From the IMG/VR virus record IMGVR_UViG_2585427767_000006: a stretch of 47,449 nt of DNA. One strand, given 5' to 3'. Under the pieces are notes generated by a model, which did no database searches, was not told the DNA's origin, and saw only the letters and a list, made by a program, of their open reading frames with translations. This document shows, piece after piece, positions 27,713 to 42,517 of the stretch. How positions within the stretch are numbered: position 1 is the first letter of the stretch; each line of letters opens with the position of its first letter. This stretch comes from a virus (taxonomy: Duplodnaviria; Heunggongvirae; Uroviricota; Caudoviricetes). The position numbers and the translations under genes are program-made.

Positions 27713-29566
27713 TTATGATGATGCCGGTGCATTTATCTCCAGCACCAGACTTTCTATCTCAACGCCATACGCTGCATTTTTGGTAATATCCGTCAGCGTC
27801 AGCGCATTCAGCCCCAGTGTCAGACTGTCTTTTATGACCTGGAATGCCGGGCCAGCCACTCCATTCAGTTTCGGAGTAACCGTGGCACTGCCGGCGGTGA
27901 ACACCAGCTCCAGCGTCTGCCAGTCGTTACTGTAATTCCCGAACTCGCCCAACTTTGTGTTTCCGGCTTTCTTGTGATGCATCAGATTCAGTTTGCCGTC
28001 TGTGGTCTGGGTGAAGAACGACATCAGGAACGGGTTACCAGTCCCGGTCATCGCCACGACGTCAGGTAACGCTACATCGGTATACAGATAAATTCCCAGA
28101 CCGAACTGGTTGTTGGTCAGTGCGCCTGACAGTCGAAACTTACAGCTCAGTCTGCCACCCCGTGTCAGCAGGGAGACTGCGTCATCCACCGGGCGCGTCA
28201 GGGACCAGGCTTTATTGCTCTGCTTGGTGATCTTAAATACACCATCTGACAACTGAATTCCGCCATTCTTAATGCTCCAGCCCTGCGCAGCAGCATCTCC
28301 GGCTGTCGGCAACAGGGAGATTGTGCGTACGGATGCATCTTCAGACGGCCCCGATGGCGTGTCGCCGCCGGGCGAGGGTTTGATTTCCGGTGCCTTACCA
28401 CTAATGAAGGCTAAGGTGCGACCGGCTACGTTCAGAATAGCAGTTGCCATACGATCGGGAATAATGCCACGACGCGCCCATGAGCTGAAATGCGTCGGGC
28501 GATTTGATGATACCCAGTTTTTGTTCGTTCGGGATGCCGAACCGTAATAACCAGACCCGGCAATATCAGGATCTTCTGACGGGTTGTTTGTCGGTGTATT
28601 AACTCCGCTACCATCGGTCATAAAGGGAACAAAATAAATCTGCTGGGATTCTTTACCTTTATATGCACCATATACCACTTCATATTGCGTACCGTGTTCT
28701 TGTTTCCACGCGTATGTCGTGTCGCCACAAATCCAGGGGACTGATGCCGGACTTCCACCGTGACACTGCGCTGCCAGCCCGGCAAGGTCAGCACGGAACT
28801 GCTGTACCATTGCAAGAAATGCTGCTGGCTGCTGGGCGTAACTGGCATTCGTCATATCGAATTCCCCCTGCATCCAGCATATCGCCAGCAAAACGTTTTT
28901 CGGGTTTTTCTGCAATGCTGCCTTCGTGCGGAAAAGCAGATCCTGATATAACGGCTTACCCACTCCCCAGCGAGCCGAATCCTGACTGGCTCCCGTGGAC
29001 TCGCTGAATGTCCCCTCCGTGCCCTGGGTGAATGCCGAACCACCACGACAGCATGGTACCAGCAGGATCCCCGCATTATTAGGGATATACGGAAGCAGTT
29101 TTTTGGCAATATGTAAGCCCTGTCCGACACAGCCGTACTGCCCTTTGCTCAGGTCAGCCCGGGGATGGTTAATCGTACTCATATCCTGAACATCATGCAG
29201 ACAATGGTCAGCAGGAATGATGTCGTTAAATACGCATACTTCACCACCGGGAGTCACTGTGTTACGACGGGCCAGTTGCTTAATGCGCGGATGGGGCGCA
29301 TCGTATGAATCCGGAAGCGGAAGCCCTTCACCGTAAGCCATGGCATTGGATTGCCCGGCCAGTACGATGACGTAGTACCACTCCGGCTCAGTTGCACCAC
29401 TGACGACCACATCACCTTCTGCTGCAATCGCCTGCATCAGGGTATAAGGGGTTATGGCCACCGGACTACCAAACGGCTGCCAGCCCTCTTTCAGTTTATG
29501 TGTCAGCTTTTCCGCAAGATCTGACGGCGACGCCGCCCTGACAACATCATAGTGTTTAAATGCCAT
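27713..29566 (-). CDS. nanS: Prophage 9-O-acetyl-sialate esterase NanS-p (DUF1737 N-domain plus SASA esterase domain)
   Basis: N-terminus MAFKHYDVVRAASPSDLAEKL and the position directly upstream of the holin match the nanS-p gene of Stx-type phages; start at ATG 29566 (SD GGTGGAAAG) rather than ORF-track 29581. Confidence 0.8.
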   Translation of the reverse strand: MAFKHYDVVRAASPSDLAEKLTHKLKEGWQPFGSPVAITPYTLMQAIAAEGDVVVSGATEPEWYYVIVLAGQSNAMAYGEGLPLPDSYDAPHPRIKQLARRNTVTPGGEVCVFNDIIPADHCLHDVQDMSTINHPRADLSKGQYGCVGQGLHIAKKLLPYIPNNAGILLVPCCRGGSAFTQGTEGTFSESTGASQDSARWGVGKPLYQDLLFRTKAALQKNPKNVLLAICWMQGEFDMTNASYAQQPAAFLAMVQQFRADLAGLAAQCHGGSPASVPWICGDTTYAWKQEHGTQYEVVYGAYKGKESQQIYFVPFMTDGSGVNTPTNNPSEDPDIAGSGYYGSASRTNKNWVSSNRPTHFSSWARRGIIPDRMATAILNVAGRTLAFISGKAPEIKPSPGGDTPSGPSEDASVRTISLLPTAGDAAAQGWSIKNGGIQLSDGVFKITKQSNKAWSLTRPVDDAVSLLTRGGRLSCKFRLSGALTNNQFGLGIYLYTDVALPDVVAMTGTGNPFLMSFFTQTTDGKLNLMHHKKAGNTKLGEFGNYSNDWQTLELVFTAGSATVTPKLNGVAGPAFQVIKDSLTLGLNALTLTDITKNAAYGVEIESLVLEINAPASS

Positions 29567-29826
29567 GGTTCTTTCCACCATCTGAAAAATGATTCTTTAA
29601 AATACCTGACATGTAATACAGAAAAAACACAAAACCATACCTTAAATAAAAACCTCATCATCAAGCAGATATGCATGGATAAACTACAAGACGAGATATA
29701 AACCACCCTGCATTTAAATAAACAATAAACAACATCAGAAAAATAATTCTGCTCTATGGTTTACAATCAAAAATATCATTTATACTTTTCAGAACATCAC
29801 CAGCAAGGCATAAACAAGGAAACTAA

Positions 29827-30162
29827 ATGAAGTGGATTGTGATTGATACAGTTATCCAGCCATCATGCGGAATATCTTTTTCAGTCATATGGAGTAAAAT
29901 AAAATTAATAATCTGGTATCAATCGGATGCTTTCTTACCTCCTGAAAGTATATTTACACTGACTCACACAGGCATCATGCTCAATAACAAAGTGCTACCT
30001 GTAACCATTTACAACGTAGTACCATTCAATAAAACATTCTGGAATTTAATCAAAAACAGCCAGGAATGCCCTACAAATACAGATAACGTATTGAATGAAT
30101 GCTTTAATAACCGTTGCACTCTGCAAATATGTCCTTATGGACTAAAACAACAAAGTCCATAA
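29827..30162 (+). CDS. Hypothetical Cys-rich protein (111 aa) in the stx-slot cargo
   Basis: SD AAGGA 6 nt upstream of ATG; candidate sigma70 promoter TTTACA-N15/17-TATACT upstream; 6 AUA codons; two strong hairpins immediately downstream. Confidence 0.4.
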
Positions 30163-30218
30163 GGAGTTTACTCACATCTGACAAAATCAATATAAACAGC
30201 CCCTCCGGAGAGGGGCTG
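30132..30218. terminator. Tandem hairpins (likely bidirectional terminators) after the plus-strand cargo ORF
   Basis: 12-bp perfect stem TCCTTATGGACT/AGTCCATAAGGA (30132..30165, spanning the stop codon) and 9-bp stem CAGCCCCTC/GAGGGGCTG with 4-nt loop (30197..30218). Confidence 0.5.
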
Positions 30219-30609
30219 GAGAGTGGCGCTATGTGCCATTGCATGGTGCCGGGTGCCTCCCGGTGAATTCAGTACCAGCACCTGAATCCGCGATTATCCC
30301 ATATACCTACTCGCTGATTGCCCCTCCGCACAGGGGGATTCACCATGCCAGTTTCTTTTAACAAACTCCCCGCAAACCAGACAACAATCAACCGCCTGAA
30401 TTGTGAAGTATTTAAAAATTTCTCCCGCTAACTGATACCCGGCTAACAGTCTGGCGTTTTCTTTTTCAGCAACGGGAAAGCAACAACCACCACACCCGCC
30501 ACCAGCACACCGTCAGCCAGCACTGACATTATCCGGCTGCTGCAATGCCATTCACAAAAACAGTAAGCAATCACTTTTTACCGTAACCGGTGATAATCCA
30601 GATATGTAT

Positions 30610-30966
30610 CTACCCCAGATGAGTAATCCGAAGTTCATCCATACCACAGGTCCTGGCTATTCTGTTGTACTCCTGAACAAGAGCAAATAATTCTGAATTA
30701 GCCACCATGAACTCATCGCAAACCCTCTGTATAGCATCACTATTCAGAATAATAACGTCTCTTCCCGAAAGACGATCAGGAGTACAGAACAAAACTGTCA
30801 AACGGCTGAAGGCCTTTGCTCGTGCTGCATTGACTATATCAATACGCTGCCTAAGGATGAAACACCCCGACGCCTCATCAATATTCACTCTACCCACACC
30901 ATATGAATGATAAATATTTAATGCTGAAAAAACCATTAGACCGTATAACAAACACTCAATCAACAC
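30610..30966 (-). CDS. Hypothetical ORF at the position stxA occupies in Stx phages; coding status doubtful
   Basis: 118-aa ORF with GTG start and no convincing SD at either the GTG or the internal ATG (30936); AT-rich. Confidence 0.25.
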   Translation of the reverse strand: MLIECLLYGLMVFSALNIYHSYGVGRVNIDEASGCFILRQRIDIVNAARAKAFSRLTVLFCTPDRLSGRDVIILNSDAIQRVCDEFMVANSELFALVQEYNRIARTCGMDELRITHLG

Positions 30967-31073
30967 TTAACAGAACTTTTATTTTTGACAAACATATAAT
31001 ATTTTCAACAATATCCTGAGCCAGGTATATTTCAGTATAAGGCTCTGCCGGAAGGAATCTGGAAGAATGAATA

Positions 31074-31150
31074 TGGCGCGCTGTACTGGATTCGAACCAG
31101 TGACCGATTGCTTAGAAGGCAATTGCTCTGTCCGGCTGAGCTAACAACGC
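31074..31150 (-). tRNA. tRNA-Arg (anticodon UCU)
   Basis: Minus-strand 77-nt sequence GCGTTGTTAGCTCAGCCGGACAGAGCAATTGCCTTCTAAGCAATCGGTCACTGGTTCGAATCCAGTACAGCGCGCCA folds as a cloverleaf with anticodon loop CUUCUAA and T-loop TTCGAAT. Confidence 0.9.
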
Positions 31151-31250
31151 TGAATACCGATAATGGACCGCCATCGGGGACCCGCCCCCGCACCAACAAC
31201 CCTGTTATCGTGTCGTCTGCTCTTCCTGATAAGCTAATGGCGGTTTGTGA

Positions 31251-31326
31251 TGGTGGCCCTTGCTGGATTTGAACCAGCGACCTGGCGATTATGAGTCGCT
31301 CGCTCTCACCACTGAGCTAAAGGGCC
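31251..31326 (-). tRNA. tRNA-Ile2 (anticodon CAU, ileX/ileZ-like; could alternatively be Met)
   Basis: Minus-strand 76-nt sequence GGCCCTTTAGCTCAGTGGTGAGAGCGAGCGACTCATAATCGCCAGGTCGCTGGTTCAAATCCAGCAAGGGCCACCA; 7-bp acceptor stem, anticodon CAU, very close to E. coli ileX. Confidence 0.85.
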
Positions 31327-31469
31327 GGGAGCAGAATAATAACGGTCCGTAATTAATTCCACAATAAAAAACCCACTCGGCGGCGGGTTGTTGAAACTCT
31401 TCTAACGTCAGGCATAAAAAGCCCATCGTTATGACGAATTTACCACAGATTCCGGAAAAATCAACCTTG
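31327..31469 (-). promoter_or_regulatory. Putative late promoter / Q-utilisation region with terminator-like hairpin downstream of Q
   Basis: Minus strand has TTGATT-N16-TAAATT promoter-like hexamers just after the Q stop and a short GC hairpin followed by UUUUU near 31366..31389; assignment by analogy to lambda, not verified. Confidence 0.3.
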
Positions 31470-32291
31470 TTACCTAGTTACCTTTTTTAACTGCCGCTCA
31501 GCCCATGCTTCTTCAATATCAAACCGGGTCACCAGCGCATCATAGAATTTCTTAACTGTTTTTTCCCATGACGCGCGTGTTATCTGGTTTGTCACCTCGC
31601 ATATAGCATTAAATGCCTCCGTTGATGGTAGTCTTTCATAGCCACGACCACCACAACGCTGGCAGTCTCTGATAACAGGCATACCACGTTTTACCGACTC
31701 TTCACGGTAAAGGGCGACACCACGCCCACGGCAATCCTTACAGGCGGTGGAAACCTCACCCTTTCCGCCACACTCCGGACAGGCAACTTTTACCACCTCC
31801 CTGACTTTTTTCCATTCTTCCCAGTAAGACGGATACACGCCTTTTGTGCACTTTGCCCACACTGGTGGCTTACCATCCGGATACTGGATCTTGTTTGTAA
31901 AAACCTCGCTTTCAATAAATTTTTTTCCGTGACAGCAGGGGCACTGTTTTTTGCTCGCCGCGCTACGGGCATAATCTTCAAACGCATACGAAGCCATAAT
32001 GCGCATCACTACCGGTTTTATTTCTGCCGGAAGTTTTCTCAACGCCGCCACACGATCGCACCGACTGAGTGCATAATCTGCCAGTAATTCTGTTGCCCGC
32101 GCCCTGTCATTCATACTGATGCCCATTTTCCCCAGGAACGCAGAAAACCCCATCTCAGCCCGATTCTGTGTCATGCCCTGCGCGGCCATCACATCAGTGA
32201 TACTCAGCGCATCTTTTGACGTTGAGGCCGATGCATCGGTCAGGCCAGGGGATTTTGGGGAGTAGTATTTCGGTAAATCTTCCAGTTTCAT
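31470..32291 (-). CDS. Q: Late-gene antiterminator Q (zinc-binding Q family)
   Basis: 273-aa protein with multiple CxxC pairs (CPCCHGKK, CPECGGKG, CKDCRGRG, CQRCGGRG); immediately upstream of tRNAs and lysis genes; ATG overlaps the rusA stop. Confidence 0.8.
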   Translation of the reverse strand: MKLEDLPKYYSPKSPGLTDASASTSKDALSITDVMAAQGMTQNRAEMGFSAFLGKMGISMNDRARATELLADYALSRCDRVAALRKLPAEIKPVVMRIMASYAFEDYARSAASKKQCPCCHGKKFIESEVFTNKIQYPDGKPPVWAKCTKGVYPSYWEEWKKVREVVKVACPECGGKGEVSTACKDCRGRGVALYREESVKRGMPVIRDCQRCGGRGYERLPSTEAFNAICEVTNQITRASWEKTVKKFYDALVTRFDIEEAWAERQLKKVTR

Positions 32292-34001: not shown

Positions 34002-34116
34002 CGGTTGTCTCTGCTGGCGCAGCAGGTGCCAGTTGTTCAGGCTGGCGTGCGAATTGTAAACCAGAATGCCAGGAAAAAACAAAACCCGCCGAAGCGGGTT
34101 TTTTGTACATATAGAA

Positions 34117-35214
34117 TTATGGTATTAATCCAGCTGTTCTTGCTTTATTAATATAATTTTTACAGTGGTTAGCCAAATACTCTGCAAACTTGCATGGAAG
34201 TGCATTTCCTATTATGACGCATACTTTATCCATCAAAGCTGTATCAAACACATAGTTATCAGGAAAAGTCTGTAGTCTAGCAGCTTCTCGAACAGAAATA
34301 GTACGCGTATCCTCAGGATGTCCATATCGCCCACGGCTTAAAGTTGTGCACCCACCTGTAATCGTTGGCGATACGTCATCCCAAAGCATACGACCATAAA
34401 CATTACTAAATCCTTTATAGTCGCCTTTATGGCAATCTGGACGGAGTTCTTCGGGAATACACTCCCAAGACATCCCTGGAACAGCCGCTTGTAACCGCTT
34501 TATATTGATCTCAGACAAATCCCTAACAATATGCCAACTCGACAATGGAAACTTCCCTTGCTTCTTAGCCTGTGAAAGAGTTAAGGGTTTTGGCATATCT
34601 CCAATAGCTTCTTTAACAGTTACCCATTTGGGTTTCTCTCTTCCATCCTTAGAGTGTGATCCATCAGGCAATGGGATGGCAAATCCTTTTCCTGCCAACA
34701 GAACAAGCCTTTTTCTGAACTGTGGTACACCAAAGTCAGCTACTTGCAAAACTCCATAATTAACTATGTAACCAAGTTTTTTCAATCTCTCAATTACTGG
34801 CGAAAGAAGATGATTTCCCCGGGAAGCTAATCCAGGAACATTTTCCATCATGATTGCTGATGGATTGGTTTCTTCAACCAACCGTAACATCTCGTTAATC
34901 AATAAATTACGAGGGTCCTCCCTTTTATACTTGGCAGTGAGACTAGTAAATCCTTGACATGGCGGGCACGCAGATAAAAGATCTAAATGTTGCTCAGGGA
35001 TAAGATTTAGGATATCACTCCCCTTTACAAACCGAATATCTTGAACAAAGAGTTTTGTCTCACGATGATTTGCTTGGAAAGTAGCGGCGGCATGTGCGTC
35101 CAGTTCAACGGCAGCTTTGACATCAAACCCGGCCATTTTTAGTCCCATGGTTAGTCCCCCACCACCGCTAAATAGGTCAACTGCATTCAAACTGGTCACT
35201 GTTTTCTCACTCAT
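34117..35214 (-). CDS. DNA cytosine-5 methyltransferase (Dcm-type)
   Basis: Motif I DLFSGGGG, catalytic motif IV PCQGF, motif VI ENV, motif VIII QFRKR; ATG overlaps the upstream gene's stop by 8 nt. Confidence 0.9.
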   Translation of the reverse strand: MSEKTVTSLNAVDLFSGGGGLTMGLKMAGFDVKAAVELDAHAAATFQANHRETKLFVQDIRFVKGSDILNLIPEQHLDLLSACPPCQGFTSLTAKYKREDPRNLLINEMLRLVEETNPSAIMMENVPGLASRGNHLLSPVIERLKKLGYIVNYGVLQVADFGVPQFRKRLVLLAGKGFAIPLPDGSHSKDGREKPKWVTVKEAIGDMPKPLTLSQAKKQGKFPLSSWHIVRDLSEINIKRLQAAVPGMSWECIPEELRPDCHKGDYKGFSNVYGRMLWDDVSPTITGGCTTLSRGRYGHPEDTRTISVREAARLQTFPDNYVFDTALMDKVCVIIGNALPCKFAEYLANHCKNYINKARTAGLIP

Positions 35215-37318
35215 TATTTCCCAACTTCAACTGTTCTGCCTCATCCAAGAATTCTTGGTGAGTTTGAGTTGTCCTCAGCAAGAACCCTGCCCAATCAACG
35301 GGTGTTAGGCGTTTTTCTTCGATGTATGCAGTATAAGCTTTACGACGTGCCCCACTCAAGCGCTCCCCATCACTTACCAGCGTAACGTGAAAATCAGATG
35401 CTATTGATTTAAAATCATTATGTCTCTCATCGTTCAAAAACTCCTCGAATGTTTCGAAGTAATTAATAATACGATCCATTTCATCATTGGAAATATAATG
35501 ATGTGGCTTTTTTATTTCAATTATTTGTAATTTTCCATCCTGACTAAACAATACAAAGTCTGGTCTTTTATTTTTTTTATCAAAATCTATAAGAAATATC
35601 TCCTCACCAGTTTTCTTTTTATAAAATTTTTGAAATTCCCTTTTAAGCGTGGACAACGTTTTATTTGCTGTAACTGGGACCCATTGAGGGTTAACTAGCC
35701 ACGGAGCGGATGCAATTAGATCTTGTAACTCATCTTCTGCTGTATCCTTTGCGTCTTTTAAAGACTCGAGACGCTCAATAATCTGAAGACGCTTTTTGAC
35801 CTTTTGACCAAAACTAACGGTTTCAGCTAGTTGAGCCGTTGCTAAAATATCGTTGAGAACATTGAGCGGTGTATCCGCTTTACTGGAAGCTTCTATTAAC
35901 TTCTCATCTAAGGATTGTAATGGTGCTAACATAATACTTAACTGCACTAAATTCTCGAGTGCATCAGGATCATGTAATTCATCACCTCGTAAAGATTTAC
36001 CCAACAACTTGGCTATTTTTTTAGCCTGTGCTCGCATATCCTTTTGACCGGCTCCAGGGTATGCTTGCTCGACCTTATCCTCCACTTGCGCTAATTCGAA
36101 GAATTGATTCATCATATTATTTCTAAGGGGGTCGCGAGTTATTTTACCCACAAGTAAAATAACTTCTTGCCCCCAATTCTGAAATTGCGTTCCTAAATCA
36201 TCAGACCATAGAATATCCCTTCTATCAGTTTGGATAAGATCTTCTTTTTCGTCTAACCAGTCAGCATGCAACTCACCTACCAAATATGAACGTATAGAGT
36301 GCTCTCCAGTAAAACCAGCTTTTCTATTAAAAACTGCTGTTTGCGCAGCAAACTTACCTCGGCAATAAATTCTAACACCTGCCATTAACTCGTCCTTATA
36401 AGGCTCTTTCGCGTATGCAATCCAACCTAATATCGGGTAAGCTTTCCCTTCATGTTCAAAACCGGCCTTAACAATTGATGAACGCGTGCCGTCAGGATTA
36501 AAAGCCGTATAATCACTTAAATCCGTACAAGAATCTGTCGCAATACTTCCACTCATGGAACGAAATTCAATTTTAGAGTTAGGCATAACAGGAACAGTAA
36601 ACTCTCCGACCTCAACTTCATAGTCAGGATTAGACTTTGTTTTCGAAGTATCAATCAGTTTAATATTCCAGTTTTTACTCTTCACTCCAAAACGTTGTGA
36701 AAGCTGCCGAGATAAATCTTTTATTTCGCTAATTTTTCTATATTCAAAATCACTTAATATTATTTTAGTATAGGTCCTGTCACTTAGTGTGCCGTCTAAA
36801 TCCCCAGTTTCCGGTTTATAAGACACTGCAGTATCATCCATTATTTTTTCTTTATCTAGCTGAATATGAGCAACCTCATACCCTTCCTTTCCATCACGAC
36901 TGATTTTTTCCCCACCGGCACTTATAATCTCGACCCTTTTACAAACACCAAAAGGTGCTAATTTCCCAACGCCTTTCCGTCCCATGACTTTGCGGTGAAA
37001 CACCTTCGAGGTTTCACCTCTTTTTGGATCCTTACGTCTTTCTTTGCCAACAACCAAATAAAAGTTCTGTAGTTCATCAGGCGCCATTCCGACGCCATTA
37101 TCTTCTACTTCTATTGTGACATTTTTTGACCTGACAACACCATCCTGTCTAACAGCCAAGTATTGGCCCATAGGTGCTTTTATAGTGACATTAGTCGCAT
37201 CTGCATCGTAACTGTTAGATACTAATTCGGCTATAACAGCATAAGCCCTGTCATATAATTTCACACCTAATTTATCTACTGTCATCCTTGATATCTGCAT
37301 TTCATATTGACGCGCCAT
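35207..37318 (-). CDS. GHKL (MORC/MutL-like) ATPase fused to a C-terminal PD-(D/E)xK-type nuclease domain; putative restriction/defence nuclease
   Basis: N-box ELVSNSYDADA, G1 DNGVGM, G2 GRKGVGKLAPFG in the first 130 aa; C-terminal IDFD...PDFVLF...IIEIKK nuclease-like signature; SD AAGGA upstream. Confidence 0.7.
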   Translation of the reverse strand: MARQYEMQISRMTVDKLGVKLYDRAYAVIAELVSNSYDADATNVTIKAPMGQYLAVRQDGVVRSKNVTIEVEDNGVGMAPDELQNFYLVVGKERRKDPKRGETSKVFHRKVMGRKGVGKLAPFGVCKRVEIISAGGEKISRDGKEGYEVAHIQLDKEKIMDDTAVSYKPETGDLDGTLSDRTYTKIILSDFEYRKISEIKDLSRQLSQRFGVKSKNWNIKLIDTSKTKSNPDYEVEVGEFTVPVMPNSKIEFRSMSGSIATDSCTDLSDYTAFNPDGTRSSIVKAGFEHEGKAYPILGWIAYAKEPYKDELMAGVRIYCRGKFAAQTAVFNRKAGFTGEHSIRSYLVGELHADWLDEKEDLIQTDRRDILWSDDLGTQFQNWGQEVILLVGKITRDPLRNNMMNQFFELAQVEDKVEQAYPGAGQKDMRAQAKKIAKLLGKSLRGDELHDPDALENLVQLSIMLAPLQSLDEKLIEASSKADTPLNVLNDILATAQLAETVSFGQKVKKRLQIIERLESLKDAKDTAEDELQDLIASAPWLVNPQWVPVTANKTLSTLKREFQKFYKKKTGEEIFLIDFDKKNKRPDFVLFSQDGKLQIIEIKKPHHYISNDEMDRIINYFETFEEFLNDERHNDFKSIASDFHVTLVSDGERLSGARRKAYTAYIEEKRLTPVDWAGFLLRTTQTHQEFLDEAEQLKLGNNE

Positions 37319-41984: not shown

Positions 41985-42037
41985 TTTCTGGTGACTTTTG
42001 GCGGTATCAGTTTTACTCCGTGACTGCTCTGCCGCCC
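41985..42037 (+). ncRNA. dicF: DicF small RNA homologue (53 nt), with intrinsic terminator U-tract to ~42042
   Basis: Sequence TTTCTGGTGACTTTTGGCGGTATCAGTTTTACTCCGTGACTGCTCTGCCGCCC followed by TTTTT matches the E. coli Qin DicF sRNA as I recall it (one mismatch). Confidence 0.75.
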
Positions 42038-42325
42038 TTTTTAAAGTGAATTTTGTGATGCGGTGAATGCGGCTGAGCGCACGCGGAACAGTTAAAACCA
42101 AAAACAGTGTTATGGGTGGATTCTCTGTATCCGGCGTTAATTGTTAACTGGTTAACGTCACCTGGAGGCACCAGGCACCGCATCAACAAAGTTCACTTCG
42201 GTGATGAAAGGTAAGAGAAAATGTTGAATGTAGCTATTGAAAACCAGAACGGGTGGAATTATAGTGCACCTGCACCTCATAAAACGGGTGCCGGGCGTGG
42301 AAACCCGAAATCATTCACGGCGCAT

Positions 42326-42348
42326 AACCGCGCTCAGGCGGTTTTTTT
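42326..42348 (+). terminator. Intrinsic terminator between DicF and the Rha gene
   Basis: Stem AACCGC/GCGGTT, loop GCTCAG, followed by TTTTTTT. Confidence 0.6.
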
Positions 42349-42517
42349 ATGCGTTAAGCACAGCCACATTCGCATTATGGTGGGGCGTGCAGGGCAGCCG
42401 CAAGGCTGGCCGGGTTCCGTGATGACCGGTATTTCCACCCCTGTACGTCTCACCACCCTTATGGTCGTGGAAAACCTCGGTGGTGAGTTAATCAAATTCA
42501 TCGCGGAGGCTGCCATC

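Follow-up and report, generated by a model that had tools for sequence, protein, structure and literature searches.

What is encoded by a 111-codon open reading frame (ORF) that runs antisense to the late operon of a lambdoid prophage, with promoter-like hexamers in front of it and hairpins at its end? The ORF is located in a 47,449-nucleotide stretch of viral DNA (IMG/VR record IMGVR_UViG_2585427767_000006; "the window" in the following), which is a complete lambdoid prophage integrated beside ompW. An earlier note on this DNA, made from the letters and a list of their ORFs, had described the product as an unknown cysteine-rich protein. Instead, the ORF is iraL, a prophage-borne gene of Escherichia coli that was published in 2014 and is already known and functionally characterized. 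We put at about 95% the probability that this iraL is a lambdoid-prophage moron encoding an RssB anti-adaptor of the IraM family that stabilizes sigma-S. The direct basis of this reading is the identity of the protein, its family membership, the correspondence of promoter and mRNA 5′ end, the purifying selection, and the prophage context; binding of RssB and stabilization of sigma-S would carry over from the literature on the identical protein. As a discovery the assignment has little weight, since the 2014 publication already covers gene, promoter, transcription start, and mechanism, and the gene has its RefSeq annotation. It nevertheless illustrates well, with a gene that is common in E. coli, how a prophage moron rewires a central pathway of its host, the stability of RpoS.

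Identity of the opposite-strand gene

Both the ORF listing and direct reading of the window give an ORF of 111 codons on the plus strand (Table 1), and the ATG at 29827, the AAGGA Shine-Dalgarno sequence (SD), and the TTTACA and TATACT hexamers are all found where the earlier note had placed them. By BLASTP, 111 of the 111 residues of the product are identical to IraL of uropathogenic E. coli CFT073 (WP_000871291.1), and the coding DNA is the same as that of CFT073 iraL without any difference. The gene was named and characterized in CFT073 by Hryckowian et al. (mBio 2014; PMC4045071), where it is carried on the potB island and its product has 58.9% protein identity to IraM of E. coli K-12 (PMC4045071). 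A remote homology search, which the earlier note had proposed as a check, leads to the IraM family as well. The ORF matches the NCBIfam profile NF007393, "anti-adapter protein IraM," with 162 bits (cutoff, 121; E = 4.7e-48), with residues 1 to 110 aligned to positions 1 to 113 of the 114 in the profile, a full-length match above the curated cutoff. Furthermore, the IraM chain of PDB entry 8TWD matches residues 1 to 78 with an E value of 9e-32 (1e-39 using the family profile), and IraM was the sole match of the family profile in the PDB profile search. In matching genomes, the gene is annotated by RefSeq as "anti-adapter protein IraM."

Table 1. Coordinates of the features discussed (positions in the window unless another record is named)
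Feature	Position	Strand	Basis
nanS-p-like SASA carbohydrate esterase gene, first late gene past the iraL slot	27713..29581	-	Pfam DUF1737 + SASA + DUF6645
iraL -35-like hexamer TTTACA	29760..29765	+	Direct reading; same in CFT073
iraL -10 hexamer TATACT	29781..29786	+	Direct reading; 7 nt upstream of the RACE-matched start
iraL 5′ UTR	29794..29826	+	From the inferred start (A at 29794) up to the ATG; contains the SD
iraL CDS, RssB anti-adaptor, 111 aa	29827..30162	+	Identity with CFT073 IraL, NF007393, 8TWD, dN/dS
Cys tail, IraL residues 81-103	30067-30135	+	16-sequence family alignment
Hairpin 1, over the last codons and the stop	30132..30165	+	Perfect 12-bp stem, 10-nt loop
STnc100-family sRNA gene	30188..30377	-	Rfam RF02076, 132.4 bits
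tRNA-Arg(UCU) gene	31074-31150	-	ARAGORN, Rfam, PGAP
CAU-anticodon tRNA gene, RefSeq tRNA-Ile	31251-31326	-	ARAGORN, Rfam, PGAP
Late antiterminator Q gene	31470..32291	-	Pfam PF03589 Antiterm, E 2.7e-52
IraL-like gene of Stx phages	L005 3206-3541 (also L006, L007; phage records H60-H85)	Opposite to stxB/esterase	Homology, 74-76%

By chance, ORFs with 111 or more codons arose in 14 of 2,000 dinucleotide shuffles of the AT-rich block from 29582 to 30220. The earlier note had made its case depend on the ORF being conserved as coding in relatives; indeed, dN/dS values among the alleles of the IraM/IraL family are 0.09 to 0.28, indicating purifying selection.

[quoted passage not shown] The homology of the two genes is limited to the coding sequence (blastn over 29825 to 30146, 70.6%), whereas the promoter, the 5′ untranslated region (UTR), and the 3′ end are unrelated; K-12 iraM has its own canonical GC hairpin with a T-run about 70 nt beyond the stop codon. 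IraL differs from K-12 IraM also by an additional C-terminal extension of four residues (QQSP). K-12 iraM is described as induced by Mg2+ starvation (PMC10844676), whereas IraL acts in log phase.

The codon usage of iraL had been linked to the tRNA genes nearby. Six of its 13 Ile codons are ATA, so the count of six AUA codons in the earlier note was correct, but the proposed functional tie to the adjacent tRNA-Ile2 found no support and was rejected. All five family genes examined have 6 to 8 ATA codons each at a GC content of 34 to 36%. K-12 iraM, which lies beside the e14 prophage, is likewise AT-rich, and because it has 8 AUA codons without a phage tRNA annotated within 5 kb (11 kb examined), the link is unsupported. 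Moreover, iraL contains zero AGA or AGG codons, the codons for the neighboring tRNA-Arg(UCU). The AT-richness of the family genes is the simpler explanation of the Ile codon bias.

RssB interface and cysteine tail

The function of the protein has been studied in CFT073. Deletion of iraL lowered the level of sigma-S in log phase and halved its half-life (about 2.5 min compared to about 5 min), and iraL under its native promoter restored the stability of sigma-S (PMC4045071). [quoted passage not shown] Furthermore, iraL expression is raised in a CFT073 fur mutant, according to the literature.

Applied to the window, these data lead to the following model. Transcription of iraL would proceed rightward from its own sigma-70-type promoter, starting at about 29794 and opposing the phage late operon. 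The 111-residue IraL, probably an IraM-like β-barrel of the PmrD type, would bind the response-regulator-like adaptor RssB, and RssB in complex with IraL would be unable to deliver sigma-S (RpoS) to the ClpXP protease. In exponentially growing cells, sigma-S would thereby become more stable, and the host would have a raised general stress regulon.

The interface residues can be compared directly. Residues 1 to 78 of IraM form a PmrD-like β-barrel that was crystallized with RssB (8TWD; PMC10844676); the barrel bridges both domains of RssB and covers the α4-β5-α5 face that sigma-S needs (PMC10844676). [quoted passage not shown] Cluster II is identical at 3 of 5 positions, with the changes T13S and L75I, and cluster III at 2 of 4, with the changes H63N and I64V; P66 is identical. 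The substituted clusters II and III are those that contact the C-terminal domain and the linker of RssB. Hence, we infer from the alignment that the interface pattern agrees with the published binding of IraL to the N-terminal domain only.

The fold assignment rests on the sequence identity to 8TWD, because AlphaFold2, run with a shallow alignment of 16 sequences, gave no usable model (mean pLDDT, 36.9; pTM, 0.24). A scan of the ORF and of all 16 family members against the Pfam copy used here revealed nothing relevant, including no match to PmrD (PF11183) at E values up to 10, whereas precomputed tables list PF11183 for family members. The latter entries fit the idea that the protein is a PmrD-like connector whose target is not RssB but a different response regulator, e.g., phospho-PmrA, which it would protect, and so does the structure of IraM, which superposes on E. 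coli PmrD (4HN7) with an rmsd of about 1 Å; IraM and PmrD also both raise the net phosphorylation of their partner (PMC10844676). However, the identical protein copurifies with RssB and alters the stability of sigma-S (PMC4045071), its contacts to the RssB N-terminal domain are completely conserved, and neither our Pfam scan nor the PDB profile search returned PmrD, the latter giving IraM only. We consider such a connector extremely improbable.

The earlier note had also pointed to a hydrophobic N terminus. This is not a signal or membrane segment: residues 1 to 78 align to the soluble β-barrel of IraM, and judged from this alignment, the N terminus of IraL is the first strands of that barrel. 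The cysteine-rich C terminus, on the other hand, was seen correctly, with 4 of the 5 cysteines lying within the last 31 residues. Cys81, Cys92, Cys97, and Cys102 (CX10CX4CX4C) and the motif ICPxG are invariant in 16 of 16 aligned family members; the family-wide invariance of the four C-terminal cysteines is a by-product of this work. The C-terminal tail of IraM has been described as less conserved and flexible (PMC10844676). It may be that the Cys tail senses metal or redox state and thereby controls the stability of the anti-adaptor.

Taken by themselves, the four invariant cysteines and an N-terminal third rich in I, V, and W would also suit a secreted or membrane-bound Cys-rich peptide, that is, a toxin, a superinfection-exclusion factor, or a phage-defense factor, and the slot of the gene is typical of morons, with stx located immediately upstream of the STnc100/iraL slot in Stx phages. 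The alignment to a soluble, cytoplasmic barrel that was crystallized with RssB speaks against such a peptide, and the identical protein works on RssB in the cytoplasm (PMC4045071), which leaves this alternative with next to no probability. The preferred reading is that of a cytoplasmic anti-adaptor of RssB.

Promoter, transcription start, and the convergent sRNA

[quoted passage not shown] Positions 29794 to 29825 of the window match this published end at 31 of 32 bases, and the 5′ end falls 7 nt downstream of TATACT, from which it follows that the promoter call is right. By homology with the CFT073 end, iraL of the window would be transcribed from about 29794. The spacer between TTTACA and TATACT is 15 nt and therefore suboptimal compared to the optimum of 17 nt, and since our consensus promoter scan takes only spacers of 16 to 18 nt, it did not list the pair; the promoter is accepted because of the RACE-mapped start and not because of the scan. 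Furthermore, an alignment of the alleles revealed that the TTACA core and TAT(AC/GA)T are kept down to 60% protein identity, the -10 hexamer reading either TATACT or TATGAT in every aligned allele. The SD (29816 to 29820) is located 6 nt ahead of the ATG.

Upstream of the coding sequence, the window deviates from CFT073 at three bases: an A replaces the T that directly follows TTTACA (29766), an A replaces the G at position -2 (29792), and a T replaces a C in the stretch from the SD to the ATG (29824). Both hexamers and the SD are intact and the same as in CFT073, and the promoter allele of the window is presumably equally active. Alternatively, the window may carry a silent or decaying copy of iraL with an inactive promoter allele, so that only the RNA elements of the locus (STnc100 and the hairpins) matter. 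The three substitutions in the promoter and 5′ UTR and the suboptimal spacer point in that direction, and the literature also mentions the second iraL copy (iraL2) of the ST131 strain JJ1886, which has a point mutation in the -35 region whose effect on activity has not been established (PMC4045071). However, not only the hexamers and the SD but also the entire coding sequence is intact and the same as in CFT073, and the family is under purifying selection. In addition, a megablast search with 801 nt (29600 to 30400) gave at least 80% coverage in 1,432 of 5,426 complete E. coli genomes; the records ranked highest, of which many are ST131, matched the query at 100%, and 1,308 records matched it at 99% or more. 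A silent copy is therefore very unlikely, and we continue to regard iraL of the window as a probably active gene.

The 3′ end of the gene is less simple than it appeared. A stop codon within a perfect 12-bp hairpin and a 9-bp GC hairpin beyond it, 31 nt apart, are both present, as the earlier note had described, but its interpretation of the two as tandem terminators of the gene has to be abandoned, since the T-run of hairpin 2 belongs to the minus strand and hairpin 1 is lost in other alleles. A scan for terminators (stem plus T-run) from 29400 to 31500 revealed no plus-strand site.

The arms of hairpin 1 are at 30132 to 30143 and 30154 to 30165, with the TAA stop codon (30160 to 30162) inside the 3′ arm. 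As RNA, hairpin 1 folds with -17.5 kcal/mol (z = -5.25), and none of 200 shuffles was as stable; it is followed by GUUUACUC, in which 4 of 8 bases are U. In the 89%-identical allele, the arms read CCCTTACGGACT and TGTCCATAATTA and in the 76%-identical allele TCCTTACGGGCT and AGTCCATAATAA; the changes are uncompensated in both, and the 3′ ends of both alleles fold no better than shuffled sequences (z = -0.45 and -0.99, respectively). A conserved role of hairpin 1, be it in termination or in regulation, was considered and rejected on these grounds. In the allele of the window, hairpin 1 may still terminate transcription weakly or stabilize the 3′ end.

Hairpin 2 has a 9-bp GC stem (30197 to 30205 and 30210 to 30218), and on the plus strand it folds with -19.0 kcal/mol (z = -2.4). 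On this strand it is followed by GAGAGTGGCG, whereas on the minus strand the nine pairs are followed by the T-run TTTATATTGA, and the terminator scan calls stem and T-run on the minus strand only. This is where an sRNA gene of the STnc100 family ends: Rfam model RF02076 matches the minus strand from 30377 to 30188 over its entire length (positions 1 to 206 of 206) with 132.4 bits compared to a gathering score of 47. Hairpin 2 (30197 to 30218) is the terminator stem-loop of this sRNA, which is convergent with iraL and ends some 25 nt away from the stop codon of that gene. STnc100 adjoins IraL-like genes in two further loci (L005 and L008) and is also present in Shigella phage 75/02 Stx, and the stem of hairpin 2 with its minus-strand T-run is conserved wherever STnc100 neighbors an IraL-like gene. 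The reassignment of the supposed second terminator to the convergent STnc100 sRNA is thus another by-product of the analysis. A pseudo-CDS that RefSeq annotates as "hypothetical protein" at about 30233 to 30358 on the plus strand overlies STnc100 and is probably spurious.

A possible cargo slot in lambdoid and Stx phages

On the minus strand of the window, the order is Q, the CAU-anticodon tRNA, tRNA-Arg, a DUF3927 gene, STnc100, iraL (antisense), the esterase (named "SASA family carbohydrate esterase" by PGAP), holin, and lysozyme. The late operon reads leftward through the tRNA genes, STnc100, and iraL in antisense into the esterase and lysis genes. With its own promoter and its orientation opposite to the late operon, iraL is expressible in the lysogen without induction of the phage. 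The gene has the features of a moron: it is on the opposite strand within the late operon, has its own promoter and a deviating GC content (34.5% in the iraL block compared to 50% in the window), and is replaced by other cargo in relatives. The proposal of the earlier note that it is an autonomous moron expressed in the lysogen is right in its core, as this GC content and the transcription of the identical CFT073 prophage copy in mid-log phase indicate.

The CFT073 gene has a similar setting, a lambdoid prophage with the order Q, tRNAs, DUF3927, opposite-strand iraL, and esterase/holin. The two prophages differ in their integration sites, next to potB in CFT073 and next to ompW in the window, and in the esterase gene, which is truncated in CFT073 and intact in the window.

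The borders of the cassette became visible by comparison with the Stx1 phage Shigella phage 75/02 Stx. By blastn, homology stops at position 29566 of the window and resumes at 30240, and this break brackets the iraL cassette. In place of iraL, phage 75/02 Stx carries the anti-GcvB sRNA AgvB (locus L003, 4885 to 4944, plus strand) at the same position and in the same orientation, convergent with STnc100 and upstream of the esterase. The cargo is an RNA in the case of AgvB and a protein in the case of iraL, and the sequences are unrelated. The slot thus looks like a site of exchangeable cargo. It may be that the plus-strand slot between STnc100 and the esterase is a conserved cargo site from which lambdoid phages reprogram their host. 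Taken jointly with the reading of the Cys tail as a metal- or redox-responsive element, this is a tentative and rather doubtful proposal. If the slot is indeed such a cargo site, many Stx phages would tune the proteolysis of RpoS as well.

Phages converting to Stx2c or Stx2a production (e.g., phage 2851) have an IraL-like gene of 111 codons with 74 to 76% protein identity and a related promoter. It occupies the same slot in the same orientation, between stxB/STnc100 and the nanS-p esterase, and is an allele distinct from iraL of the window, without hairpin 1. On E. coli contigs that carry stx, a 76%-identical allele (P0005) stands between stxB and the esterase gene, and by tblastn, copies with 74% identity are present in 41 phage records, most of which belong to Stx2c- or Stx2a-converting phages. 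Among the matches listed, most phage records have no annotated feature at this gene. Sequence similarity of this kind suggests that many Stx phages carry an RssB anti-adaptor, too. We know of no characterization of the Stx2c/Stx2a-phage allele so far. The recognition of this IraL-like gene beside stx, in Stx2c and Stx2a phages whose records mostly leave it without annotation, is a further by-product.

Some other features of the prophage were noted in passing. Just downstream of Q (31370 to 31465, minus strand), a pR′-like site (TTGATT and TAAATT with a spacer of 17 nt) is followed by a strong hairpin with a T-run (31389 to 31370), an arrangement that would give a short late-leader RNA ending at tR′; the analogous late-leader RNA of Stx phages, StxS, activates the translation of rpoS according to the literature. 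Judged from an identical prophage annotated in RefSeq, the nin-like region that lies upstream of Q (34116 to 37317, minus strand) contains genes for a DNA cytosine methyltransferase and for a 703-residue "ATP-binding protein." An ORF of 118 codons between the tRNA-Arg and DUF3927 genes (30610 to 30966, minus strand) has no match in Pfam or NCBIfam and is unannotated in RefSeq; since a terminator-like site (30774 to 30756, minus strand) is located inside it, this ORF may be noncoding. Finally, Rfam models match three RNAs in the early-left region beside dicB (plus strand): DicF (41986 to 42037), isrK (42272 to 42348), and the C4 antisense RNA (42373 to 42460).
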